64,000 bases of DNA, taken from positions 185,360-249,359 of IMG/VR virus record IMGVR_UViG_3300032007_000006; one strand, given 5' to 3'. This document shows, one piece after another, positions 135 to 64,000 of this stretch (within the stretch, counting starts at the first letter, position 1; each line of letters starts with the position of its first letter). A program made the translations under genes and the position numbers. This DNA comes from a virus. Lineage: Duplodnaviria > Heunggongvirae > Uroviricota > Caudoviricetes. Below the pieces are notes generated by a model. The model ran no database searches. It saw only the letters and a program-made list of their open reading frames with translations, and was not told the origin of the DNA.

Positions 135-3134
135 CTAGGCTACATCCTTTTCCTTTGCAGATTCAATGGCTTCATGCTCCACTTCATCAGTATAGAACTG
201 CCTCTGTGGGAAGTCAAATGTCCTTCTTACAGGATGCCAGTTGGCAACCGTGGTCAAAAATCCAACCACCCTTGTCATATGATTGACGCAAGGCCTTCCG
301 CAGGTAGGACAGGTTTCTCCACCAACCCAGAGGTGCTTTTCTTCACAGCAATTGAGCAGATAGTTGATGGCCCAGTAGACAACGCCACATTTGGCCGCAT
401 ACTCCATCAGGGAGACCATCACCTTAGGATCCTTTATCTTCTCGCCAACATTGATGTGGGCAATGGCTCCACCAGAGAGGTGACGATCAAAGAGTCCCTG
501 CAGCTTCAGTCTGTCAAGCATGTCGGCCTTGACAATGAGTGGAATGAACTGATTGCTGTATAATGGAACGCCAATGTCATAGCCAAGCATCTTGTCCTTG
601 CTGGCCAGCTTGATTGCGGAAGTCTCTGCAGGAACCTGCTCTACATTGTGGGGAGCCTTGTACTGAGCTTCGGCGCGGTCGATCCATTTGTTGATGTTTT
701 TGAGAATCCTTAGAACAAGATTCTGTCCTTCTTCCGTGAGAATGTCCTTGCCAAGCAATTGAACGGCTTCATTGATTCCAACAACTCCAAATGTGCTGTA
801 CTGCTTACTGAGATCCATGTAGCCTTGGGTGTAGAGAGGAGCGGCACCAAGTTCAATGCGTTTTCGTACCAGCCGACGCTTGCAGGCATTGATCTTTGCG
901 GCAACAGCATAGATTTCCTCAAGACCTTCCATGAACTTGTCTACATCTCCCTTGGCCTTGTATGCAATGCGAGGAAGATTTGCAGTCACCACGCCAAGAG
1001 AGCCAATCTTGGTTGAACCTGCGCCAAAGGAGTTAAAGTATGGATTGTCCTTGTTTGAGCGCAGACGACAGCAGGAAGACAATGTGGACGTGTCTCCGTT
1101 GTATATGTTGATCCAGCCGTATTCAAGATTTGCATTGGCAATAAAGTTGAGGAACTCCTTGTCCTTGATAGAGCCGTCTTCCTCCTTGCAGAAACAGGCT
1201 GTAGTTACAGGGAACGTGATTGGACTTCTGGCCAGCTCCTCATTCATCACTTCAACATATATCTTCTGAAGAAGCTTCACAGTCTCTTTCTTGGCATTGT
1301 AGTCTGGGCAGAGGGAGTCAAGGAAGGTGTCATCATAGAGGGATATATTTGTGAATGCGGACTGATTTCCTCTAAACTCCCAGTTGACCGTGTAGACAAA
1401 TGCAGTCAATCTCTCCTTGATGTACTGCTCTGGGTTGCCAATCACTGTATGGCCATCCATTCCATTTTCAAGCAGAAGGTCTACATAGCGGGAAGCAACC
1501 AACAGAAGATCAGCGAAGCCAGTGGCTCCAAGAGTGGAATTTGCGGCTACTACAACAAACTGCTCAACCTGTCGTAGGAAAGTATCGAGTGATTTTGGTG
1601 GAAATACTCTAATTCGTTTAGAAATGCTGTCCAATCCATTGAATGCAATGTCATTTGTGCTGTAGTTAAAGCAGTTGTGGCCAATTATTCCATTGGTATA
1701 GAATCTGCCACTGGAAGTGGTGATGTCATAGACATACTTGTCGTTGAAATCAACTTCTTCCTTCTTTAAAACATGCATTGTTTCAAAACGACCATCAACT
1801 GCACGTTTCTTGAACAGCACGTCAACATGATCCTTTAGCTTGTAGGACATGTCAACAATGGAGTCATTTTCATCTGGAATAGAAAATGAAACTCTGTACA
1901 TTGGCTGCAGCTGGTCAATACGAGTATTTCCTCTTGCTGGAGCAACGCATGAAGTGCGAACACGATTCATTCCGATTCTAGTTGCAATTTCTGCAATTTG
2001 CTGCACCATCCCAAGACTAATCACGCGAATGTCCACAACGCCAGTATGCTTGTTTACCGTTCCATCAGTATCAATCAAACCAGCAACAAGAGCCTTTAAG
2101 GCATCAGTTTTCCAAATCAGACAGTCGCTTGGAAGTCTTTTGTTGAATGCACGAGTGCCAATGTTGACGGCATGCCAGAGTGCATCTTCCCTATGACCAA
2201 AATCTACAGAACGAACTGAATCTACATCATCAACCTTTCCAGTTGTAATGTTGTCATAAAGTTTTTCTATATGCTCCATGTAGGAACTTTCAAGAATGTT
2301 CTTTTGATGGAGAGTAAGCGTTGTTGGATTAAGGGAACCATCGCCAATCAAGGCTCCAGTAAGATAGGCTCTATTGAAGTCAACATCCATTGCATTTTGC
2401 ACAACATCAGCTGATGCAACGTCACATCCAAGGATTTCATCACCAATTTCAACATCGGAAGCAAACTTTTCGCTTCCATCAGCAAGAATGCAGGGATGAT
2501 CCTCGGTTACGCTAAAAACAGTACCTTTCTTCGTTTCAAAGCGGTACATCTTCTTTTTGTTCTTGTGACGAACTACTCGTTCAAGAGCAACCCATTTTCT
2601 GTCTTCATAGACTTCCAGTTCCAATGGCTTCAAGTCGGCTTCTTCCCAGTCCTCCTTTTTTACAACATAAGCCATGTTTTCAAAGAATAACTGTTCCAAA
2701 GTCATCATTCTAACTTTTTTGCCATCTTTGACAAGAATAGTTGTTCCAGGATGGTATGAATACGGACTGGCAATATCCGTAAAGTCGTTGATATAGATGT
2801 CGCCAGTCAACTGAGCTTCAATGATGTCATTTGCCGTTTCAAGACCATAGGCCTTCTTCAGCTCCTTCCACAGCAGAAAGTAGCTGTTGTAGCGTTTCAG
2901 TGGCTTTGGAAGTTCAAAGTTGTACTCAATGCCAGTCTTTGCCACGACATTGGCATTTGCATCAACAGACACGTCGGCTGATGGACCATTGGAGTTGAAG
3001 AAGTTCTTGCTGAACTTGTTCAAGTCCATCTGCTCTCCTATTCCATCAAGCGTGAACAGCTCCTTTCCATATTTCGACCAGAGATGCATCATCAAAGTGT
3101 CGAAGTCTGTGTCCCAAGAAATGCGAAAGTACAT
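135..3134 (-). CDS. nrdD: Anaerobic ribonucleoside-triphosphate reductase NrdD (class III RNR) interrupted by an intein; 999 aa
   Basis: C-terminal glycyl-radical motif TRVVGFL and the Zn-ribbon CPTCG..C; the length excess over ~600-aa NrdD is explained by the intein; GGAGGA SD before the ATG at 3134. Confidence 0.85.
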   Translation of the reverse strand: MYFRISWDTDFDTLMMHLWSKYGKELFTLDGIGEQMDLNKFSKNFFNSNGPSADVSVDANANVVAKTGIEYNFELPKPLKRYNSYFLLWKELKKAYGLETANDIIEAQLTGDIYINDFTDIASPYSYHPGTTILVKDGKKVRMMTLEQLFFENMAYVVKKEDWEEADLKPLELEVYEDRKWVALERVVRHKNKKKMYRFETKKGTVFSVTEDHPCILADGSEKFASDVEIGDEILGCDVASADVVQNAMDVDFNRAYLTGALIGDGSLNPTTLTLHQKNILESSYMEHIEKLYDNITTGKVDDVDSVRSVDFGHREDALWHAVNIGTRAFNKRLPSDCLIWKTDALKALVAGLIDTDGTVNKHTGVVDIRVISLGMVQQIAEIATRIGMNRVRTSCVAPARGNTRIDQLQPMYRVSFSIPDENDSIVDMSYKLKDHVDVLFKKRAVDGRFETMHVLKKEEVDFNDKYVYDITTSSGRFYTNGIIGHNCFNYSTNDIAFNGLDSISKRIRVFPPKSLDTFLRQVEQFVVVAANSTLGATGFADLLLVASRYVDLLLENGMDGHTVIGNPEQYIKERLTAFVYTVNWEFRGNQSAFTNISLYDDTFLDSLCPDYNAKKETVKLLQKIYVEVMNEELARSPITFPVTTACFCKEEDGSIKDKEFLNFIANANLEYGWINIYNGDTSTLSSCCRLRSNKDNPYFNSFGAGSTKIGSLGVVTANLPRIAYKAKGDVDKFMEGLEEIYAVAAKINACKRRLVRKRIELGAAPLYTQGYMDLSKQYSTFGVVGINEAVQLLGKDILTEEGQNLVLRILKNINKWIDRAEAQYKAPHNVEQVPAETSAIKLASKDKMLGYDIGVPLYSNQFIPLIVKADMLDRLKLQGLFDRHLSGGAIAHINVGEKIKDPKVMVSLMEYAAKCGVVYWAINYLLNCCEEKHLWVGGETCPTCGRPCVNHMTRVVGFLTTVANWHPVRRTFDFPQRQFYTDEVEHEAIESAKEKDVA
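1674..2759 (-). mobile_element. Intein inside nrdD carrying a LAGLIDADG homing endonuclease; the N-terminal boundary is approximate
   Basis: Block A-like SYHPGTTILVKDGKK, Block B TEDH, two LAGLIDADG motifs (LTGALIGDGSL and LVAGLIDTDGTV), C-terminal IIGHN followed by +1 Cys (CFNYS). Confidence 0.65.
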
Positions 3135-13517: not shown

Positions 13518-14336
13518 TTATGACTTGAACTTCTTTAGTTTAGTCACTGGAAATATCTTTGTAGCATCTCTCAAAATCTTAGTCAAATCGGCACGTCTGT
13601 ACTTCACTGTGCGGCTGATGACCTTCTTCTGAGCGACCTTGCCAATGTAGGCATTGACTGCTATTGCCCATTCAAAGTCAAAAGTCTTCGAGTTGTTGAA
13701 TCCATTTGGATGATGACGCATCAACCATGCCATATGATCGCTGTCGCCAGTCAAGGCTACTTCAAAAACAATGGTTCGAGACTTGTTTACAAACAAATGG
13801 GAAACCCAGGTCTCCTTCCAGTAAGATTTCATGTTGATCACGTCAACCACAGTAGAGGCCTTTTCAATATGAGTGAATGGCTCTCCAAAAAAGTTTGTCA
13901 AATGAGAAACGCATCCAAAAAAGTCTATTTTCTTGAGACATTTCAGAATGGCCTCATAAATTGGACCACGAGTCTTGAGAATGTCCTGTCTAAATGTCTC
14001 TCTATTGGCATCTCTTGCAGCCCTTGAAGTTTTAAACGTCTGACCAGCCTGTCTATAGGCCTGTGCATTTCCACGCATGCTTCCAGTTCCTGCTGAAGCG
14101 CCAGCAACAGTCTTGACAGACTTGCCAATATATTGCTTGAGAACGTCATTCGCGGCATTAATGTCCTGCATCTTTTCAAGGCTGCCACCTCTGTCTGGAT
14201 GGTTTGTCAATGCAAGCTTCTTGTGAAGCTGACGCAGTTCAATGGCCGTTTTTGGAAACTCCGAGAGTCCAAAGATTTTCAGTGCGGTCATTGGATCCAT
14301 TATGGCTTCTTCAAGCCACTCTTTAAAGCTTTTCAT
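13518..14336 (-). CDS. J-domain (DnaJ-like, HPD) protein with an N-terminal capsid-targeting-sequence-like peptide MKSFKEWLEE (272 aa)
   Basis: LHKKLALTNHPDRGGS is a canonical J-domain helix II plus HPD; the N-terminus matches the T4 CTS consensus MKTYQEFIAE; paralog of the 14392-15213 product. Confidence 0.7.
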   Translation of the reverse strand: MKSFKEWLEEAIMDPMTALKIFGLSEFPKTAIELRQLHKKLALTNHPDRGGSLEKMQDINAANDVLKQYIGKSVKTVAGASAGTGSMRGNAQAYRQAGQTFKTSRAARDANRETFRQDILKTRGPIYEAILKCLKKIDFFGCVSHLTNFFGEPFTHIEKASTVVDVINMKSYWKETWVSHLFVNKSRTIVFEVALTGDSDHMAWLMRHHPNGFNNSKTFDFEWAIAVNAYIGKVAQKKVISRTVKYRRADLTKILRDATKIFPVTKLKKFKS

Positions 14337-14391: not shown

Positions 14392-15213
14392 CTACTTCAT
14401 TGGAATTCCGTAATATGCTGTCTTTATCTTTGATGGAGAAAGCAGCTTTTTTGGATCCTTTAAAATGGAAAGGTCTACACTTTTATATTTTTTCTTTCTT
14501 AAAACAACTTTCTTGTTTGAAGCCCTGCCTTTATAGAAATCAACGGCGATTGCCCATTCAAAGTCAAAATTCTTTGAATTTTCAAATCCATTGGAAGTAT
14601 TACGCATGCGCCAGGCCATGTGATCCGTATCGCCAGTTAATTCAATGCCAAAAACTTCCATTCCAGACTTGTCTGTAAAGACATAGCGAATCCAAGGCTC
14701 CTTGGCATGATCCTTCATTTTAACAATTTCTTCAACAGTGGATATTTTTGTAAGCGTATGTTCAAATTTTATACCCAATACCTCTGAAAAGTGCTTTGCG
14801 AATACAAAAGTAGGAAGTTTTTCAAGAAAAGCCGCAATCGCTCTATATATTGGTCCATGCGTCTTGAGAATGTCCTTCTCAAATTCGTCACGATTTGCAT
14901 TGGCTCTGGCTCTTGAGGTTTTAAACGTTTCTCCAGCCTGCCTATATGTTTGAGATGCGCTGGTCCTTGTTCCACTTCTAGCAATGCTCTTGACGGACTT
15001 GCCAATCCACTGCTTCAATACGTCGTTAGCCGCATTGATGTCCTTCATCTTTTCAAGACTTCCACCACGATCAGGATGGTTTGTCAAGGCAAGCTTCTTA
15101 TGCAAGTTTCTTAATTCAGTTGCAGTCTTTGGAAATTCGGAAAGACCAAAAATTTTCAACGCTGTTTTTGGATCCATAATGGCTTCAATAAGCCAATCTT
15201 TGAATGATTTCAT
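14392..15213 (-). CDS. J-domain (HPD) protein with N-terminal CTS-like MKSFKDWLIE (273 aa), paralog
   Basis: LHKKLALTNHPDRGGS; preceded by an AGTAAATAA motif 20 nt upstream. Confidence 0.7.
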   Translation of the reverse strand: MKSFKDWLIEAIMDPKTALKIFGLSEFPKTATELRNLHKKLALTNHPDRGGSLEKMKDINAANDVLKQWIGKSVKSIARSGTRTSASQTYRQAGETFKTSRARANANRDEFEKDILKTHGPIYRAIAAFLEKLPTFVFAKHFSEVLGIKFEHTLTKISTVEEIVKMKDHAKEPWIRYVFTDKSGMEVFGIELTGDTDHMAWRMRNTSNGFENSKNFDFEWAIAVDFYKGRASNKKVVLRKKKYKSVDLSILKDPKKLLSPSKIKTAYYGIPMK

Positions 15214-45646: not shown

Positions 45647-45913
45647 ATGAATTTAATATACAGGGAATATCGCAAATGGCTTGATGGCATTGAGGCCAAC
45701 ATCAGAATGAACTTTCCTGGATGGAATGTGGAACTGCGAGAGCATCGCAAGGGAATATTTGCTCTCTACTTCGGAAATCCATTGGCTAGTCAATGTGACA
45801 GAACCTTCTATCTCAACATGGAGCAGGTAGAATTTCTTGAAACGGCCAGAGAACTTGATCTAGCCAAATTTTTTGAGGATGGCACGTTCTGTCGTCATCC
45901 ATTGGGAGCGTAG
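45647..45913 (+). CDS. Hypothetical protein (88 aa)
   Basis: ORF only. Confidence 0.4.
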   Translation: MNLIYREYRKWLDGIEANIRMNFPGWNVELREHRKGIFALYFGNPLASQCDRTFYLNMEQVEFLETARELDLAKFFEDGTFCRHPLGA

Positions 45914-45932
45914 AGTGATTGGAATCCATAAG

Positions 45933-46958
45933 ATGAATGAGTCCTATGCCAGGATGGAATATGATGAGGACAAGGAATTAAGTCTCATATACAATGCTCT
46001 GAGCTACTATCCAGAAAACTACAGGTTTATGCCAGCATTCAAGAATGGCATGTGGGATGGACAGATTCATCTTATGGATGCCTCTACTGGAGCATTTCCC
46101 CTTGGCTTGACAAGACATGTTCTCAAGACGGCCAAGGAGCTTGGCATCGAGTTCAAAGTGGACTCTGAAGTGGCCAGATGCTTTGTAGACATGGGATTCA
46201 ATGAGGCGCACTTTCAGTCATTTCTGGACGCCACAAGGTTTTTCTCTGGAGGAAAGGAGATATTCCCAAGAGACGATCAAATTGAAGCAACCAGACGCGC
46301 ACTGGAAAGCAGACGATGCATCAATCTCTGTCCCACTTCATTCGGCAAGTCGCTGTCCATTACAATGGAATGCCTCTATCTTGTTCAGCAGGGAAAGACT
46401 TGCATCATTGTCGTGCCAACAAAGGGACTTGTGGAGCAGTTTGCGAATGATATCAAGGACTATGCCACCAATGAAAAGGGAGAACTTGAGTCATGGATGC
46501 CGAAGCTTCAGTTGATATATGGTGGAAAAGACAAGGATCTCAAGGATGACACTCAAATCTGCATATCAACCTGGCAGTCTCTGTACAGCATCTGGAAAAG
46601 CGACAAGAAGTACATGAACCAGTTTGACTGCATATGCTTGGATGAGTGTTTTGATGGAGAATCGTTAGTAGCAATGGCTGATGGTTCTTGTAAAAAAATA
46701 AAAGATATTGTCGTTGGAGATAAAATCTTAAACTATTCTGAAGATAAAAAGATTTTTAAAGAAGATATTGTTGAATCTGTACATAAAAATCTGTATGTTT
46801 CAATGAAAGAAAAAATGCTTGAATTGTTGTTTGATAATGGAACTATCATTCAATGCACAGCAAATCACAAGTTTTTAACAAAAAGAGGATGGAAGCGAGC
46901 AGATGAATTAAATGGAGATGATGAAATTGTAGAGCATGTCGCACCATCGACCATATAG
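45933..46958 (+). CDS. SF2 (DExH, UvsW-like) helicase N-terminal extein fused to a split-intein N-fragment (IntN about 103 aa)
   Basis: Helicase motif I CPTSFGKS, Ia, motif II LDE then the intein CFDGESLVAMADGS (Block A) ... TANHKF (Block B), then a stop. Confidence 0.7.
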   Translation: MNESYARMEYDEDKELSLIYNALSYYPENYRFMPAFKNGMWDGQIHLMDASTGAFPLGLTRHVLKTAKELGIEFKVDSEVARCFVDMGFNEAHFQSFLDATRFFSGGKEIFPRDDQIEATRRALESRRCINLCPTSFGKSLSITMECLYLVQQGKTCIIVVPTKGLVEQFANDIKDYATNEKGELESWMPKLQLIYGGKDKDLKDDTQICISTWQSLYSIWKSDKKYMNQFDCICLDECFDGESLVAMADGSCKKIKDIVVGDKILNYSEDKKIFKEDIVESVHKNLYVSMKEKMLELLFDNGTIIQCTANHKFLTKRGWKRADELNGDDEIVEHVAPSTI

Positions 46959-47962
46959 CAAAATTAAAGAATCTTCTAATGCAATTTTAGAAAGTAACAA
47001 TCAATACACAAGAATCGAATTTATCAATCGCGAAAGAATCGAATTAAACAATGGATTAAAACTGACTGGAACAGAAAAACAAAAGTTTTTAAAGATAATT
47101 ACACATTTAAAAACTGAAATGTGGAGAGAAAGTGTTGACTATATTGTAAATGGAGATTTTAATGAACGATATGAAGAAATTAGAAAGAAAGTCAACTATA
47201 AGAATAATTCTGAATTATTAAAACATCGAATAGCAACAGGACAATTAGATCCGAGAACATGCTTAGGAAAAGATCCTTGGAATAAAGGAAAGCATTATAA
47301 AAGAAAAGTGCCGTTTAGTGATATTGAACGACAGCGTCATAGAGAATGCAAGCTTGGAACAAAAAATCCAATGTATGGTGTGTTACATTCTCAAGAATAT
47401 AAGAAAATCGTATCGGATAGAATGAAAGAAAAGATTTTAAAAGGAGAGTTTACACCCAATACAAACAATAGATATACACATTTTGATGTAACATACAGAG
47501 GAAAGGTATTTCGTTCTTCATGGGAAGCAGTGTTTTATTGCAAATATCATGAAACTTATCAGTATGAAAAATTAAGGATTCCGTATACCTTTGATAATGA
47601 AAATCACATTTATATTGTTGATTTCATTAATGAGCAAGATAAAATCGCTGTAGAAATAAAGCCATCTAGCATTCTAGAGCGTAATAGCAAAGAACAAGCC
47701 AAATTAAACGCTTTAAAGACATGGTGCATCAACAATGAATATAAATTATGGGTTGTCGATGAAAATGACATTAGAAATATTGTATATGAATTGAATAGTT
47801 TAGAGGAATTTGACTACTCCACACAGCAAAAACTAATAAAGCAATTTGGAGTTAAAAATGAGACTTCTAGCTGTTAAAGAGATTGAAAAACCCAATACGG
47901 TATATAATCTTTCTGTAAAAAATGATCACAACTATATTGTTAATGGTGCAGTAGTTTCAAAC
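46647..47962 (+). mobile_element. Split intein plus free-standing HE cassette fracturing the helicase gene
   Basis: IntN 46647-46955, HE 46936-47877, IntC 47846-47962; strongly AT-rich relative to the exteins. Confidence 0.65.
46936..47877 (+). CDS. Free-standing homing endonuclease (PD-(D/E)xK C-terminal domain) located between the split-intein halves, 313 aa
   Basis: HIYIVDF...IAVEIKP (D...E.K), GTKNPMYG motif shared with the second free-standing HE; different frame from both helicase fragments; AT-rich. Confidence 0.55.
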   Translation: MSHHRPYSKIKESSNAILESNNQYTRIEFINRERIELNNGLKLTGTEKQKFLKIITHLKTEMWRESVDYIVNGDFNERYEEIRKKVNYKNNSELLKHRIATGQLDPRTCLGKDPWNKGKHYKRKVPFSDIERQRHRECKLGTKNPMYGVLHSQEYKKIVSDRMKEKILKGEFTPNTNNRYTHFDVTYRGKVFRSSWEAVFYCKYHETYQYEKLRIPYTFDNENHIYIVDFINEQDKIAVEIKPSSILERNSKEQAKLNALKTWCINNEYKLWVVDENDIRNIVYELNSLEEFDYSTQQKLIKQFGVKNETSSC

Positions 47963-48790
47963 TGCCATCGAGGCAGTGGTCGTGCGATTCAGGCTGTAAT
48001 GACTTCAGCAAAGGACGTTGGAATTCGTACAGGATGGACTGGAACTCTGGCCAATGAGCAGATAAATGAAATGCTCATTCGTGGACTTTTTGGAGAGCCG
48101 AGACAGATTGTCACCACGATTGAATTGATGGACAAGAAAATAGTGGCTCAGCTGAAGATAAGCATAATGAAACTGATTTATCCTGATGGATGGGGAAGGT
48201 CATTCAAGCTGCTGGACTATGCAAATCAATGCAAGTATTTTGAGGAGCTGCAGGAGAGAACGGATGCCATAGCAGGAATGGCTTTGAACAGAAACGAAAC
48301 TGGCTTGATGCTCTACAGAAAGATTGCCCATGGAGAAGCAATCTTTGAAGCATTAAAACGTATGGCTCCCGAAAGAAACATATATCTTGTCCATTCTGGC
48401 CATTTTCAGAGAAATGAAGAGAAGTTCAAGTCTTTTGAAGACTTAAAGCCGTTGCTTGAGCAGGAAAAGGATGCAGTGCTTGTCGCAAACTATCAGCTGG
48501 TCGGCACTGGCGTATCAATCAAGAACCTTCATTTCGTGATGTTTGCCGCTCCAATCAAGTCCTACATCACCACAATTCAGAGTATTGGACGTGGTCTTAG
48601 AGTGTCAGCCACGAAAAAGAGCGTTGAACTGATAGACATAGTGGATGACATGTCCTATAGGGCCAGAGTGAACATAGTTCAGAACTATGCCTTGAAGCAT
48701 TATGCCGAACGATACAAGATATACGCGGCAAATGGATTTGACTGCTCCATGGATTCCATGCACATAGAGCCAAAGGAAAAGACATTCTAG
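47846..48790 (+). CDS. Split-intein C-fragment (IntC 39 aa) fused to the helicase C-terminal extein
   Basis: VYNLSVKNDHNYIVNGAVVSN (Blocks F/G) then +1 Cys; CH completes motif II LDE|CH; motif VI QSIGRGLR. Confidence 0.7.
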   Translation: MELKMRLLAVKEIEKPNTVYNLSVKNDHNYIVNGAVVSNCHRGSGRAIQAVMTSAKDVGIRTGWTGTLANEQINEMLIRGLFGEPRQIVTTIELMDKKIVAQLKISIMKLIYPDGWGRSFKLLDYANQCKYFEELQERTDAIAGMALNRNETGLMLYRKIAHGEAIFEALKRMAPERNIYLVHSGHFQRNEEKFKSFEDLKPLLEQEKDAVLVANYQLVGTGVSIKNLHFVMFAAPIKSYITTIQSIGRGLRVSATKKSVELIDIVDDMSYRARVNIVQNYALKHYAERYKIYAANGFDCSMDSMHIEPKEKTF

Positions 48791-55138: not shown

Positions 55139-55465
55139 ATGAACACATTCAACGACTATATTCTTGGTAAACCAGTTAAATCTTCCAAAAGAAAGGCCAA
55201 GTGGAGCATAGACAGGAAAAATCCAAACTATGTCAAGCTGAAATGCGGTCAAAAAGTCTTGTATGTGCTGAACAAGATTGTAGGTCGCAAAACTGACAGA
55301 CCTTATATGGTTTCACTTTCATCTGGAGGCGCAAATGCCTGCAGAACGTTCAATGATGCAATGACTTTTATAGAGCATATGCTGACTACAGCAAACTTTG
55401 ATCTATATGAAGTGGAACCAATGAAGATGGAAGTGAAGAATTGGCTTGAAAGAGTTGAAAATTAG
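55139..55465 (+). CDS. Putative internal protein with CTS-like MNTFNDYILG (108 aa)
   Basis: Paralogous architecture to its neighbours (C-terminal ...W.E(K/R)...). Confidence 0.5.
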   Translation: MNTFNDYILGKPVKSSKRKAKWSIDRKNPNYVKLKCGQKVLYVLNKIVGRKTDRPYMVSLSSGGANACRTFNDAMTFIEHMLTTANFDLYEVEPMKMEVKNWLERVEN

Positions 55466-60972: not shown

Positions 60973-60990
60973 AAGGAAACAGGAGTGCAT

Positions 60991-61749
60991 ATGAAAGTAG
61001 GCCAGGTTGGAGAAGGAAAGGTTTATCTGCTTAACAAGGGAGGCAAGGTCTGGACAGACATTGCCGCGAGGTTTGTCCGTTCTGAGAGGCCTGTAGAGGA
61101 GATCATACAGTCGGACTATGATCCAAAGATTGTTAGAAACATTCTGGAGTCTGGACACTATGCGGCGACAGAATTTGATCTTCTTCTTTTTGGAGTTGAA
61201 GGCTATTCCAGAGTATGCGAAGTGCAGCTTGTACGCAAGCGTCTTGCATCCTATCTCATCAAGTCTGGACGAGCTGAACTGCATGGGAAGAGGACTTTTT
61301 CAATTGTTGCTCCAGACAATGTGCTGGACAGAAAGTTCACTGTAGACGTGAAGGGAGAAAAAGTGGCGCTGTCTGGACGCGACCTGGCCAGCATCTCCGA
61401 GCAATGGTATGAGAGTGGTCTTGAAGCTGGACTTCCAGAGGAGGATCTGCGGTATTTCAAGCCACAGGCTACGGAATTCAAGGCCATCATAGGGATGAAT
61501 GTTCATGCCTTAAGGGACTGGCTGAAAATACGGATGTGCCAGAATGCACAGGCCGAGATAAGAGATCTGGCGACCAAAATGTGCCATCTGGCGAAGGAAG
61601 CCTATCCTGACCTGATAGAAGGAGCAGGACCATCCTGCAAGGTGCTTGGCTACTGTCCTGAAGGCAGACTCCAGAACGCCAAGTGTAGGGGAAAGATACC
61701 GCTGAAGGAAGACCTGCTTGAAGCATGGAAAGCATACAAGTCAAAGTAG
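60991..61749 (+). CDS. thyX: Flavin-dependent thymidylate synthase ThyX (253 aa)
   Basis: ThyX signature R-[HK]-R-x7-S (VRKRLASYLIKSGR) plus YAATEFDLLLFGVEGYSRVCEVQL; AGGAG SD before the ATG at 60991. Confidence 0.78.
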   Translation: MKVGQVGEGKVYLLNKGGKVWTDIAARFVRSERPVEEIIQSDYDPKIVRNILESGHYAATEFDLLLFGVEGYSRVCEVQLVRKRLASYLIKSGRAELHGKRTFSIVAPDNVLDRKFTVDVKGEKVALSGRDLASISEQWYESGLEAGLPEEDLRYFKPQATEFKAIIGMNVHALRDWLKIRMCQNAQAEIRDLATKMCHLAKEAYPDLIEGAGPSCKVLGYCPEGRLQNAKCRGKIPLKEDLLEAWKAYKSK

Positions 61750-61757
61750 AATGAAGA

Positions 61758-61779
61758 GGGAGAAGCATATGCTTCTCCC
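61758..61779 (+). terminator. Rho-independent terminator (gggagaagcatatgcttctccc) after thyX
   Basis: 11-bp palindromic stem followed by TTGTAAATATT. Confidence 0.55.
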
Positions 61780-61788
61780 TTGTAAATA
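61780..61788 (+). promoter_or_regulatory. TTGTAAATA late-promoter-like motif directly after the terminator, 32 nt upstream of the kinase gene
   Basis: Recurring motif. Confidence 0.4.
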
Positions 61789-61820
61789 TTGAATGATCTC
61801 CATAGCATAGAAATTAATCA

Positions 61821-62195
61821 ATGAAAGGATATATTGAGTGGCTTAATGAGAATAAGCTGTTTGAAAAGGCCTTGAATGTTGGTGCTAAAAGCGCAATGCC
61901 TAAAGAAAATCAAGCAGTTATCTTGTCTGGTGGTGCGGGATGCTTTGCCGCCACTACTATGGTCAAAACTTCTTCTGGCCACAAGGCAATAAAGGATGTT
62001 GCAGAAGGAGACATAGTTGAATCGTGGAATGAAGAAACTGGACAGCTTGAATGGAATCCAGTTCTAAAGGTCAATGTATTTCCACCTGTAAAAAGAATGA
62101 TGCGATTGACTTTTGACAATGGCGAGGAAGTCATTTGCACGGAAGATCACGAATTTCTGGTTGATGGAAAATGGGTGCAAGCTAAGGATTTATAG
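61821..62195 (+). CDS. P-loop NMP-kinase-like protein N-terminal extein (with CTS-like MKGYIEWLNE) fused to a split-intein N-fragment
   Basis: ...AVILSGGAG then the intein CFAATTMVKTSSG (Block A) ... TEDHEF (Block B), then a stop. Confidence 0.6.
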   Translation: MKGYIEWLNENKLFEKALNVGAKSAMPKENQAVILSGGAGCFAATTMVKTSSGHKAIKDVAEGDIVESWNEETGQLEWNPVLKVNVFPPVKRMMRLTFDNGEEVICTEDHEFLVDGKWVQAKDL

Positions 62196-63465
62196 CAATG
62201 ATAATTTATAGACATCGCAATAAACCAGAAAATATTATATTTGATAGTATTGATGTAAAAGATATTATTAAAGAAATAACACATTTATATGCGTTGTCTA
62301 ATCCAATGTTTATTCAATTTGGAGATTTATCTTTAACTGCTTTGAATATTTTTATTATTAATAATATAAACAAATCGTTTAACGATAATAAACTTATTAA
62401 AGAATGCACTAAAGCACTTAATGAAGTGTTGAAAGTTAATTATCAATGTAAACCATCAAGTAAATTTTTAAACTATGGATATTATATTGAATGTGGTCAT
62501 TCTGAAGAAGAAGCAAAAATAATAGTTTCTAATATTCAAAAAAGTCGTTCTAATAGATGTGTTGAATATTGGATCAATAAAGGATTTACTAATGAAGAAG
62601 CATTGATTAAAGTAAATCAAGTACAAAAGCAATATGCAGAAAAATCAGCAGAAAAATTATCTTTAGATTATTGGTTAAAATATGGATTATCTTATGATGA
62701 AGCAATTATTAAGCAAAAGGAATATAATTTAAAAATTGCATCTTCGTCAAAAGAGCATTTAAAACAAATTAATCATAAATCTGATGAAGAAATTGAACAG
62801 ATTAGAAAAGTACGATACAATACTAGAGATCCACAAATATGCGCTCTTCGTCATAATATTAGTATAGATGATGCAAAAGCAATTGTTAAAGATCGTATAG
62901 CACGTTCTACCTGTTGTGGAACAAAAAATGGAATGTACGGTCATAAATCTCCATTAAGATCTGGTGCAGCATATAGTGGTTATTATAAAGACTTTTATTT
63001 TAGAAGCTTTTCTGAATATTGTTTTATTAAACTTCATGAAAGTGAAGACATACATTCAGCCGAAGATAAATTTAAAGTTGTTTGGAAAGAGGGAAAAACT
63101 TATCGACCAGATTTTATTATTGGTGATACAATCTATGAGATAAAATGTGACTATATGTTGGATAATGATGAAACAAAACTTAAATTGAAAGCTTTAAAAG
63201 AAATGTATCCAGAATATAAAATTATTCTTGTTCCTGCAAAATCTATTCCTAAACCTCCAAAAGAAATTGTTTTGAATGATATTGAAAATGGAAATTTGCG
63301 TATAGTTGAGTCAAAAATGAAAAAGTTTAAACAGTTTATGGAGAAATATAAATGAAAGTTATAAAAAAGGAATACATAGACTGGAATGAAGATGTCTATG
63401 ACTTGGTCGTTGAAAGGGCTCACAGCTATGTCATTGGAACTAAATCTGACATCATTGTTCATAAC
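61941..63465 (+). mobile_element. Split intein plus free-standing HE cassette inserted in the P-loop of the kinase gene
   Basis: IntN 61941-62192, HE 62198-63355, IntC 63352-63465. Confidence 0.6.
62198..63355 (+). CDS. Free-standing homing endonuclease (PD-(D/E)xK) between the split-intein halves, 385 aa
   Basis: RPDFIIGDTIYEIKCDY (PD...E.K), GTKNGMYG motif shared with the HE at 46936-47877; extremely AT-rich. Confidence 0.5.
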   Translation: MIIYRHRNKPENIIFDSIDVKDIIKEITHLYALSNPMFIQFGDLSLTALNIFIINNINKSFNDNKLIKECTKALNEVLKVNYQCKPSSKFLNYGYYIECGHSEEEAKIIVSNIQKSRSNRCVEYWINKGFTNEEALIKVNQVQKQYAEKSAEKLSLDYWLKYGLSYDEAIIKQKEYNLKIASSSKEHLKQINHKSDEEIEQIRKVRYNTRDPQICALRHNISIDDAKAIVKDRIARSTCCGTKNGMYGHKSPLRSGAAYSGYYKDFYFRSFSEYCFIKLHESEDIHSAEDKFKVVWKEGKTYRPDFIIGDTIYEIKCDYMLDNDETKLKLKALKEMYPEYKIILVPAKSIPKPPKEIVLNDIENGNLRIVESKMKKFKQFMEKYK

Positions 63466-64000
63466 TCTGGAAAAGGAATGGTGTTGAACAACATCCTCAA
63501 CATTCCCAACGCCAGAGTGTTTGACGTAGACAAGTTAAAGAATGACATCATCAAGATGCGTCCAAAGTCCATGGCCGATGCATTTCTCAAGCAGACTGGA
63601 AAAAACCTGAAGCAGATCAATCTTGGCAATCCAGATGACGTGGCCTTGATACACAAGTTTGTCTCGGACAACAAGTACGACAAGAAAGTCATCAATCAGT
63701 TCTTTCTCAGCAATGGAGATGTCTGGCCTGATGGCACTCCAAAGCCAGAAAAGAACCTTCACAAGCCTAATGTAGTGTTCGACGTCACTCTCAAGGATGA
63801 AAAGAAGATGTTTGAACTTTGCAGGCTTCTTCAGTTCTATGGATGGGAGAAGAAGAACATTCATCTGGTATGGATTCTGAATGACTTCGAGATTGCTTCC
63901 ATGCAGAACCAGGAAAGGGACAGAAAGGTTCCGCAGGACATTCTGAAGCAGACTCATGTTGGCGCTTCGGACACCATGAGGGAGATCGTCACAAACTTCG
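63352..64000 (+). CDS. Split-intein C-fragment (38 aa) fused to the kinase C-terminal extein; partial, runs off the window
   Basis: VYDLVVERAHSYVIGTKSDIIVHN then +1 Ser; SGKGMV completes the Walker A GGAG|SGKG; no stop up to 64000. Confidence 0.6.
   Translation, partial: MKVIKKEYIDWNEDVYDLVVERAHSYVIGTKSDIIVHNSGKGMVLNNILNIPNARVFDVDKLKNDIIKMRPKSMADAFLKQTGKNLKQINLGNPDDVALIHKFVSDNKYDKKVINQFFLSNGDVWPDGTPKPEKNLHKPNVVFDVTLKDEKKMFELCRLLQFYGWEKKNIHLVWILNDFEIASMQNQERDRKVPQDILKQTHVGASDTMREIVTNF

Follow-up and report, generated by a model that had tools for sequence, protein, structure and literature searches.

Fractured genes were described by Dassa, London, Stoddard, Schueler-Furman and Pietrokovski (2009, NAR 37:2560, PMC2677866) and are found mainly in phages, often T4-like ones (PMC2677866). 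In such loci the N-terminal part of a host gene, fused to an N-terminal intein fragment (IntN) and closed by a stop codon, is followed on the same strand by a free-standing endonuclease open reading frame (ORF), and then by a C-terminal intein fragment (IntC) joined to the remainder of the host protein. The split inteins gp41-1 and NrdJ-1 both derive from the original fractured genes, and the literature rates gp41-1 as a natural split intein of high performance. The 2009 paper remarks that control elements move along with the endonuclease gene (PMC2677866). Here we describe a locus with this same arrangement at positions 61821–64000 of a 64,000-nucleotide (nt) stretch of the tailed-phage record IMGVR_UViG_3300032007_000006 (positions 185,360–249,359 of that record; hereafter the window), in which a predicted P-loop kinase gene is interrupted inside its Walker A motif. 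We consider it highly probable that the locus is a genuine fractured gene in a distantly T4-like phage of about 326 kb, with the origin and mechanism proposed below. The layout is already known; the host gene and the endonuclease type are new. A search for reports of these particulars (kinase host, Walker A site, TnsA-like type, very short spacer, possible targeting tag) found none in an incomplete literature set.

Organization of the locus

Three closely packed ORFs, in three different frames of the plus strand, make up the locus, with the following features:

61821–62195, plus strand: ORF A (frame 0, 124 amino acids [aa]), N-extein and IntN
61821–61940, plus strand: N-extein, 40 codons, ending in the first half of the Walker A motif (ILSGGAG) and aligning end to end with intein-less homologues
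61941–62195, plus strand: IntN, 84 codons (61941–62192) and a TAG stop, with Cys1 and block B TEDH (Pfam PT-HINT, 8.7e-10)
62198–63355, plus strand: ORF B (frame 2), free-standing endonuclease gene, 385 aa
63352–63465, plus strand: IntC (frame 1, start of ORF C), 38 codons, ending ...IIVHN
63466–64000, plus strand: C-extein from Ser+1 (the invariant Walker A Ser41), beginning SGKG, with 178 of its 266 codons inside the window
64266 (window-equivalent, by offset from the source contig): end of the C-extein, followed by a terminator-like hairpin at 64285–64314

ORF A reads MKGYIEWLNENKLFEKALNVGAKSAMPKENQAVILSGGAG, then CFAATTMVKTSS...EVICTEDHEFLVDGKWVQAKDL, then TAG, so that its junction is MKGY...AVILSGGAG / CFAATTMV...TEDHEF...AKDL and the stop. 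ORF C reads MKVIKKEYIDWNEDVYDLVVERAHSYVIGTKSDIIVHN, then SGKGMVLNN..., its junction being MKVIKKEY...SDIIVHN / SGKGMVLNN with Ser at +1. The ATG of ORF B lies 2 nt past the IntN stop, with AAGGA 8 nt upstream, and the ATG of ORF C (63352) overlaps the ORF B stop as ATGA, with GGAG 8 nt upstream. Base composition changes sharply between the genes: GC along ORF B is 22–32%, versus 41–48% in the flanks, and coding GC is 25.8% in ORF B, 41% in ORF A and 45% in ORF C.

ORF A and ORF B matched exactly a 326,324-bp contig of the ENA (ERZ27256887; L001 is its stretch), where the full ORF C could be read (L001 11155–12069, 304 aa). The predicted splice product is therefore 40 + 266 = 306 aa. The ORF A and ORF B proteins recur unchanged in an independent Logan assembly, SRR9008756, and ORF A is also present on a JGI 3300026539 contig, which then ends. 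Moreover, diverged copies of the three-ORF cassette were found in at least three other phage lineages.

An earlier, sequence-only reading of the window had given the same ORF layout and frames, the IntN stop, the 38-aa IntC and Ser+1, a Walker A motif GGAGSGKG split by the intein, and an AT-rich 385-aa ORF in another frame between the halves. All of this was correct, down to the exact GGAG / SGKG junction in ORFs A and C, and the part of the C-extein beyond position 64000 was recovered from the 326-kb source contig.

The terminase of this phage is 35–42% identical to those of T4-like phages, and related contigs carry T4 gp2 and baseplate genes; on these homologies the phage is classed as a distant, jumbo-sized relative of the T4 group, of roughly 326 kb. 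Megablast of positions 61000–64000 against 50,697 phage records gave no match, and an Rfam scan of 61500–64000 at E <= 1 found no group I intron or other known RNA element.

Exact junction and allelic states

With the spliced sequence as query, 47 homologues were retrieved. The best, P0001, is intein-less, has the same length as the predicted splice product (306 aa), and is 96% identical over 100% of the query. It runs unbroken across the junction (GGAGSGKG; ...ILAGGAGSGKGMV..., in a longer reading ...AVILAGGAGSGKGMVLNN...), which settles in the affirmative whether intein-less homologues are contiguous. The DNA encoding P0001 (L015) aligns with the source contig as far as the final extein codon and again from the Ser+1 codon onward; the stretch missing between them is exactly L001 9744–11268, 1,525 nt corresponding to IntN, its stop, the endonuclease gene and IntC. 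Two same-strand ORFs carry the intein halves, the endonuclease ORF lies between them, and the joined exteins reproduce the uninterrupted homologues.

Overall, three states of the locus were observed among related metagenomic phages: the empty allele, of which P0001 is one of many; a mini-intein that is contiguous and occupies the same GGAG / C...HN / SGKG site (P0040, 424 aa); and an intein that is split and accompanied by an endonuclease gene, present in four diverged lineages (the window phage, L008, L010 and L011). Relative to the window copy, the last three are 47–66% identical in the endonuclease and 43–73% in the extein. A word-index homologue search with ORF A returned at least five clusters. 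More distant lineages also contain kinase-family fragments: P0045 (JGI) starts with an IntC (...SDIIVHN / SGKGF), and P0063 and P0064 (Logan) are N-fragments of 120–140 aa that contain HINT domains. Hence the fractured state extends beyond the close relatives of the window phage.

The most informative pair was L014 and L008, whose flanks are 98–99% identical on both sides. L014 lacks a 1,206-nt cassette consisting of the IntN stop, the spacer and the endonuclease gene, and has one ORF across the site (...VQAKDL-TLAEAT-KKEYLES...). Of the 22 downstream mismatches between the two, 7 fall within 18 nt of the junction; there the linker codons read AEAT in L014 and MKIV in L008, and MKIV supplies the IntC start codon. 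The pair matches the gene-breaking model of Dassa et al., and by sequence it would fit gain and loss alike. In L008, a hairpin and one exact copy of TATAAATA lie in the 59-nt spacer ahead of the endonuclease gene; with its 2-nt spacer only, the window copy is the more compact.

The split intein

ORF A matched Pfam PT-HINT with 39.4 bits (cut-off 27.7), and the last 34 positions of the Intein_splicing model matched residues 2–38 of ORF C weakly (28.2 bits, below the cut-off of 35.8). Cys1, block B T-x-x-H, the terminal HN and Ser+1 are conserved in five alleles. By these motif criteria (Cys1, TxxH, HN, Ser+1) the element is a class 1 split intein, and trans-splicing is predicted. The closest solved structure to the fused IntN and IntC was the gp41-1 intein (PDB 6qaz, E = 4.8e-7), and NrdJ-1 was also among the structure matches. 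The intein is homologous to the split intein of the other fractured gene in the window (27% identity, E = 5e-15).

Ser+1 corresponds to S41, which is invariant in the Walker A loop of the kinase family; the intein nucleophile is thus a residue that the host protein cannot change. Insertion at an unchangeable host residue is the usual logic of intein insertion sites.

The endonuclease

The gene between the intein halves encodes:

62198–63355, plus strand: endonuclease, 385 aa, with an N-terminal helical region, GTKNGMYG (residues 241–248) and a C-terminal TnsA-like PD-(D/E)xK domain (E273, D305, E314, K316)

These last four residues are conserved in all endonuclease-bearing alleles. The N-terminal two-thirds of the protein is helical and contains three repeats of about 33 aa, whose first three residues lie at 95, 124 and 158. 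These repeats (window 62480–62770, residues 95–190) read [YW][YW][LI]xxGxSxEEAxxxVxxxQ, are conserved in homologues and belong to no Pfam family. They are probably a modular DNA-binding array, and the helical region as a whole would be the DNA-recognition part of the enzyme.

Pfam assigned no family, PF08722 (TnsA-like_N) included, to this endonuclease. PF08722 did match 4 of the 14 aligned relatives, among them the other endonuclease of the window (26.6 bits, cut-off 26.5), and distant endonuclease homologues also match it. A profile of the endonuclease family against the PDB gave weak matches to T7 endonuclease I (E = 0.2–0.8), used for motif alignment only, in which FRS..E / PDF aligned with the corresponding T7 endonuclease I motifs; phmmer of the endonuclease against the PDB returned chance lectin matches only. 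In the AlphaFold model (pLDDT 81, pTM 0.41) the placement of the domains relative to each other is uncertain, as the pTM indicates. The restriction-endonuclease-like fold with E...PD...(D/E)xK was found. On these lines of evidence together the protein is assigned as a canonical PD-(D/E)xK endonuclease, TnsA-like, and cleavage is predicted, in line with the PD-(D/E)xK assignment made from the sequence. Membership of the Vsr-like/EDxHD family (I-Bth0305I type) was rejected, since no Vsr-type active site, in which a catalytic His replaces the lysine of ExK, was found.

The sequence-only reading had also noted a motif shared by the two free-standing endonucleases of the window and had placed both cassettes in one mobile-element family on that basis. 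The motif is indeed shared: GTKNGMYG at 62918 and GTKNPMYG at 47356 are the sole two matches in a six-frame translation of the window. GTKNPMYG lies inside a Pfam NUMOD3 match (22.1 bits, cut-off 20.4, residues 140–157 of the other endonuclease), and NUMOD3 is a DNA-binding module common to several endonuclease families, so that one mobile-element family cannot be defined by this motif alone. The relatedness itself holds on other grounds, namely the homologous TnsA-like nuclease domains (BLASTP E = 0.004 at the nuclease domain, only about 25% identity). Presence or absence of the gene between flanks 98–99% identical, its foreign GC content and purifying selection lend indirect support to its being a putative homing endonuclease. 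No report of a TnsA-like endonuclease in split inteins was found in an incomplete literature set.

The kinase

PHROG 5268 (function not annotated) matched the spliced extein at 1.5e-57, and many homologues at 32–43% identity are precomputed as PF06414 (Zeta_toxin). An AlphaFold (AF2) model of P0001, built from a 33-sequence alignment, had a mean pLDDT of 87. Foldseek against the PDB placed first AvrRxo1, the zeta/PezT toxins and the Clostridium thermocellum polynucleotide kinase (PNK), with E from 1e-6 to 1e-4. The top 18 matches all belonged to this Zeta/AvrRxo1/PNK group, and adenylate and deoxynucleoside kinases appeared at about 1e-3. Residues S41, K43, D62, D146, R191 and R193 are invariant in the family alignment. 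We take K43 to be the Walker A lysine and R191 and R193 to be lid arginines, and D62 (FDVD, about 20 residues past the Walker A lysine) presumably occupies the place of the catalytic Asp of Zeta toxins. By this analogy, the invariant K43, D62, D146, R191 and R193 would fit the catalytic layout of Zeta/AvrRxo1/PNK kinases.

On the modelled fold, the extein is a predicted P-loop phosphotransferase, Zeta/PNK-like. The P-loop kinase fold expected by the sequence-only reading is borne out by the Foldseek matches together with the Walker A lysine, downstream Asp and lid arginines; on the choice that it had posed, between an adenylate/deoxynucleoside monophosphate (dNMP) kinase and another family, the fold is nearest to Zeta toxin, AvrRxo1 and PNK. 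An adenylate or dNMP kinase identity was rejected because its one support is the P-loop (GGAGSGKG). A profile of the kinase family against the PDB gave P-loop-local matches only (dynein, VirB11, adenylate kinase) and is for that reason uninformative on the kinase family.

Homologues about 38% identical are carried by 215 cultured T4-like phages that infect Klebsiella, Enterobacter, Cronobacter, Citrobacter, Aeromonas and other hosts (for example Klebsiella phage phi1_146002, Citrobacter phage CfP1 and Cronobacter leB), under annotations that disagree: hypothetical protein, zeta toxin family, polynucleotide kinase and head morphogenesis protein. In an incomplete literature set, the sole trace of the family was RB43 ORF241c, for which a Pfam Zeta toxin E-value of 0.36 is given. 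In cultured T4-like phages of Klebsiella, Yersinia and Citrobacter (L006 3974–4807; L017 and L018, 1501–2334), the homologue lies close to hoc and inh in a variable region; most of its neighbours are on the other strand, and a conserved CAATAAATA comes about 25–30 nt before its ATG.

In three lineages the neighbours are nucleotide-metabolism genes. In the window phage, thyX (60985–61749) lies directly upstream of the kinase locus; the gene order in L008/L009 is thyX-nrdD-[kinase]-nrdG-dCMP deaminase-...-dUTPase; and in a Klebsiella phage two deoxyribonucleotidase genes follow the homologue. These neighbours are the best hint at the role of the kinase and compete with the packaging idea discussed below.

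Proposed origin and mechanism, and alternatives

We propose that a P-loop phosphotransferase gene of PHROG 5268 acquired a mini-intein of the gp41-1 class between G40 and S41 of GGAG / SGKG, and that a free-standing TnsA-like PD-(D/E)xK endonuclease gene then inserted in the intein linker, which would have turned the element into a split intein. The linker insertion point is the position where inteins usually carry their endonuclease domain. The locus would yield three products: an N-fragment made up of a peptide resembling a capsid-targeting sequence (CTS), another 30 residues of extein and IntN; the endonuclease; and a C-fragment in which IntC is followed by 266 residues of extein. IntN and IntC would associate and trans-splice, with Cys1 and Ser+1 as nucleophiles and cyclisation of Asn38, to give the 306-aa kinase with an intact P-loop and the junction peptide ...AVILSGGAGSGK... 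Kinase activity should depend on splicing, since neither fragment holds a complete Walker A motif. The endonuclease would serve its own spread only, by cutting alleles without the cassette, into which repair would copy it.

The data establish the anatomy, the exact junction, the three allele states, the folds of extein and nuclease, and purifying selection on every part. The origin is inferred from the allele comparison, and the working mechanism from the anatomy, which applies to trans-splicing, the endonuclease target, the activity and substrate of the kinase, co-transcription and capsid targeting. Several points weigh against this reading. The end of ORF C and the downstream terminator lie beyond the window and were taken from the contig with identical ORF A and ORF B proteins. 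The extein itself scored 17.8 bits with Zeta_toxin (PF06414), below the cut-off of 22.3, and is therefore described here as Zeta/PNK-like and not as a Zeta toxin. Its Walker A motif ends in GKG, not GK[ST], which is unusual outside adenylate-kinase-like enzymes. Finally, with synonymous sites near saturation in most comparisons, the ratios of nonsynonymous to synonymous divergence (dN/dS) are rough: about 0.02–0.03 for IntC, 0.09–0.12 for the C-extein and 0.23 for the endonuclease.

Homing-endonuclease insertions can inactivate non-essential genes, and the split allele seems rare in databases (at least five clusters with ORF A as query), so that the insertion might have destroyed the kinase and left the intein halves as decaying remnants. 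This we regard as very improbable, and a pseudogene was rejected: the splicing residues and all three frames are intact in four lineages whose exteins have diverged to 43–73% identity, and IntC is 84–87% identical between lineages. Every part of the locus is under purifying selection, the nonsynonymous proportion (pN) being well below the synonymous one (pS) in N-extein, IntN, endonuclease, IntC and C-extein in pairwise comparisons, which argues against a decaying pseudogene; ribosome-binding sites and the ATGA start/stop overlap are also preserved. That the frame changes are sequencing or assembly errors in one contiguous intein-endonuclease ORF, the outcome that would have undone the sequence-only reading, has a negligible probability. 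The data are metagenomic assemblies only, but independent assemblies from separate archives encode identical proteins, which rules out an assembly artefact, and diverged cassettes keep the three-frame layout. In addition, every ORF has its own start codon and Shine-Dalgarno-like sequence, and the GC content of the endonuclease gene differs sharply with boundaries at the ORF edges.

The two halves might instead assemble non-covalently through the intein fragments, without splicing. A precedent is given by a fragmented NrdA of an Aeromonas phage, held together by mobile-element-derived domains, a T4-like case in which a gene split by a homing endonuclease gives a working enzyme without ligation (PMC3045599). 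For the kinase this is a highly unlikely arrangement. The break is inside the P-loop, and a complex would leave about 120 intein residues in the ATP-binding loop; moreover, the full class 1 catalytic set is conserved, and the nearest relative, gp41-1, is rated as high-performing. Trans-splicing of a fractured kinase gene is the reading that we retain.

The N-terminus and the packaging question

The N-extein begins with the following feature:

61821–61850, plus strand: CTS-like decapeptide MKGYIEWLNE, with another LxE (LFE) whose last codon is 15

T4 IPII and IPIII both start MKTYQEFIAE, and the kinase decapeptide matches it at positions 1, 2, 4, 6, 7 (aromatic), 8 and 10. Mutants of the T4 CTS assign targeting to positions 4 and 7 and processing by gp21 to positions 8 and 10 (Mullaney & Black 1996, reviewed in PMC9026906); the kinase agrees at all four. 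The pattern M-x-x-[FY]-x-[EDK]-[FWY]-[ILVC]-x-[ED] starts eight ORFs of the window, from about six unrelated families, and was found in 0 of 100 shuffles. The CTS-like N-terminus proposed from the sequence alone is a real, statistically recurrent pattern, found at these positions:

CTS-like ORF starts: 41143 (+), 40757 (+), 54789 (+), 56586 (+), 61821 (+), 15213 (-), 14336 (-), 49379 (-)

Examples are MKSFKEWLEE, MKTFKEYLQE, MKSFADYVNE, MNTFNEYIFE and MTSFQKWLTE. The recurrence suggests a large set of prohead-targeted proteins. An ORF at 55139 (+) has a looser variant outside the pattern, MNTFNDYILG. Two adjacent paralogues, at 13518–14336 (-) and 14392–15213 (-) (272 and 273 aa), both with a CTS-like start, have near-identical N-termini, MKSFK(E/D)WL(E/I)EAIMDP...TALKIFGLSEFPKT, and one of them has a weak DnaJ-like match.

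Across the kinase family, [L/I]-x-E immediately before the conserved core is nearly universal and E15 nearly invariant. The T4-like phage homologues start MKSF(K/L)(D/E)F...(L/I)DE / ALITFGG, and a conserved AATAAATA precedes. By its sequence the N-terminus would fit a removable targeting peptide, and packaging of the kinase we place between doubtful and evenly balanced. A broader proposal is that the PHROG 5268 family, including its members in cultured Klebsiella, Enterobacter, Cronobacter, Citrobacter and Aeromonas phages, might consist of capsid-packaged, injected kinases akin to the Zeta/AvrRxo1 effectors, with the CTS removed by the prohead protease at the conserved LxE; this seems unlikely. 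If it were true, an effector would need trans-splicing before loading, and the supply of an ejection protein would be tied to the activity of a selfish element. No report of a CTS-bearing Zeta-like phage protein was found in an incomplete literature set.

The competing view, which has an even prospect of being right, is that the kinase is not packaged: the N-terminal helix and LxE would belong to the family fold or to a common phage N-terminus, and the protein would be a cytoplasmic kinase of the (d)NMP or nucleoside type acting in nucleotide metabolism. The gene stands amid nucleotide-metabolism genes in three lineages, its P-loop GGAGSGKG is adenylate-kinase-like with weak profile matches on AK1, and the promoter-like TGTAAATA upstream of it also precedes nrdD, a non-structural gene. 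The window and L001, about 75 kb out of the 326 kb, were searched by tblastn with T4 gp18–22, gp67 and gp68, and only the terminase matched; no gp20, gp21, gp22, gp67 or gp68 was found, and the lack of a gp21, gp22 or gp20 homologue in the 64 kb plus 21 kb searched may also favour a cytoplasmic enzyme. Set against this view are the agreement with the experimentally defined T4 CTS at the targeting and processing positions, the occurrence of the decapeptide on unrelated ORF families and never in shuffles, which argues for a portable tag, and the near-universal [L/I]xE before the core. Also against it, residues 1–30 are the least confident part of the model (pLDDT 57–70), and the fold is nearer to Zeta, AvrRxo1 and PNK than to NMP kinases.

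Promoter-like element and transcription unit

Between thyX and ORF A, two elements were found, the second of which recurs in the window:

61756–61781, plus strand: hairpin with an 11-bp stem directly after thyX (RNA fold -23.1 kcal/mol, z = -3.6), likely the terminator of the upstream unit
61781–61788, plus strand: promoter-like element TGTAAATA, ending 32 nt upstream of the ORF A ATG
TGTAAATA sites: 3172, 31131, 39848, 43565, 49975, 53692, 53731, 56558, 61781

A consensus scan also finds the hairpin on L001, listed on the minus strand owing to its palindromic stem. TGTAAATA is identical to the T4 late -10 box, TATAAATA, at 7 of 8 positions. It occurs nine times in the window (1.4 expected; no shuffle reached nine), and eight of the nine copies lie 22–40 nt upstream of a same-strand ORF start; the start codons downstream often have no Shine-Dalgarno sequence. 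The late-type promoter of the sequence-only reading holds as an enriched, promoter-like element, a candidate phage-specific promoter, and not as a T4 late promoter: exact TATAAATA has 0 copies in the window, and TGTAAATA precedes a head-closure gene and also nrdD, so that late timing is not established. A terminator-like hairpin lies at L001 12088–12117, 19 nt past the ORF C stop. From the tight packing of the ORFs (2-nt gap, 4-nt overlap), the two bounding hairpins and the single TGTAAATA, the three ORFs probably form one transcription unit, read as one transcript.

Other inteins and fractured genes

At least four inteins, of three architectures, are present in this phage, namely those of NrdD, UvsW, the kinase and PolB, which makes it a good system for the spread of inteins and their endonucleases. 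The first fractured gene (45873–48790, plus strand) encodes a UvsW-type helicase (Pfam UvsW_N, ResIII, DEAD) split at its DEC / F box:

45873–46958: ORF with IntN
46936–47877: endonuclease, 313 aa, overlapping both neighbours
47846–48790: ORF with IntC, +1 Cys

In Pfam, its endonuclease scores 26.6 bits with TnsA-like_N and 22.1 bits with NUMOD3. NrdD, the anaerobic ribonucleotide reductase (135–3134, minus strand, 999 aa), contains a contiguous intein at residues 136–487 with a LAGLIDADG_3 match; this is the classical architecture, occurring in the genome alongside the split inteins. The nrdD start has a TGTAAATA 38 nt upstream. A third fractured gene, about 8 kb past the window end (L001 17893–20669), encodes a DNA polymerase B split after YSDTD. 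Its intein starts with Ser, not Cys, and consists of an IntN of about 119 aa and an IntC of 38 aa ending VHN, with +1 Ser. Between the halves is an AT-rich ORF of 332 aa (...IEFYGDYWH...), Vsr/EDxHD-like in look. In layout and fragment sizes this locus is like the Aes123 PolB1 split intein, a cysteine-less one from T4-like Aeromonas phages (PMC11923092).

The nrdD of a related phage is divided between two ORFs of 429 and 347 aa, with a 369-aa zinc-finger ORF (Pfam zf-Di19) between them (L007/L008 1–3443). In L009 (1056–3443) the nrdD halves are adjacent, without the zf-Di19 ORF, a presence/absence polymorphism in which no intein was detected.

Comparison with known systems

The extein model has its best structural matches in Zeta/PezT, AvrRxo1 and PNK, with which it shares the Walker A Lys, the Asp and the lid Args. 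It differs from them in the low TM-scores (0.37–0.43 on the query) and in a beta-rich C-terminal region (about residues 229–306) without counterpart in these proteins; unlike Zeta toxins, the phage kinase has no antitoxin partner. Its tag resembles the T4 CTS in the aromatic residues at 4 and 7, L/I at 8 and E at 10, and differs in sitting on a fragment of 124 aa, which would first have to be joined to its partner by splicing. That some T4-like phages may package a Zeta/AvrRxo1-like kinase is a testable idea raised by this tag. The nuclease domain, unlike the N-terminal domain of TnsA (Tn7) and T7 endonuclease I, is fused to long helical repeats that probably bind DNA and to a NUMOD3-like motif, and, unlike TnsA, it lies within an intein gene, outside any transposon.

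The kinase intein shares with gp41-1 (PDB 6qaz, 6riz) the class 1 chemistry with Cys1 and Ser+1, the same kind of locus and similar fragment sizes (84/38 aa, versus 88/37 aa in gp41-1). The host protein and insertion site are different, and about 40% of residues are shared in the aligned stretch. A gp41-1-related split intein of this size with Ser+1 is a candidate protein-ligation tool.

With the fractured genes of Dassa et al., the locus shares an IntC within their range of 33–54 aa and the existence of an endonuclease-less allele, as for their gp41-7 (PMC2677866); the hairpin and TATAAATA of the L008 cassette are likewise its own control elements. The proposed invasion of a mini-intein by an endonuclease to give a split intein is illustrated unusually cleanly by this natural series of alleles. 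The host is a kinase, versus their eight DNA synthesis and repair enzymes (PMC2677866), which adds a non-replication host to fractured genes. The endonuclease, TnsA-like PD-(D/E)xK with NUMOD3-like and helical-repeat DNA-binding modules, adds a third type to the GIY-YIG and Vsr-like types that were the only ones in their set (PMC2677866). The spacer before the endonuclease is 2 nt, compared with 27–51 nt, and IntN, at 84 aa, is slightly below their 88–105 aa (PMC2677866). Finally, the kinase locus differs from theirs in the insertion inside Walker A and in a possible capsid-targeting tag on the N-fragment.

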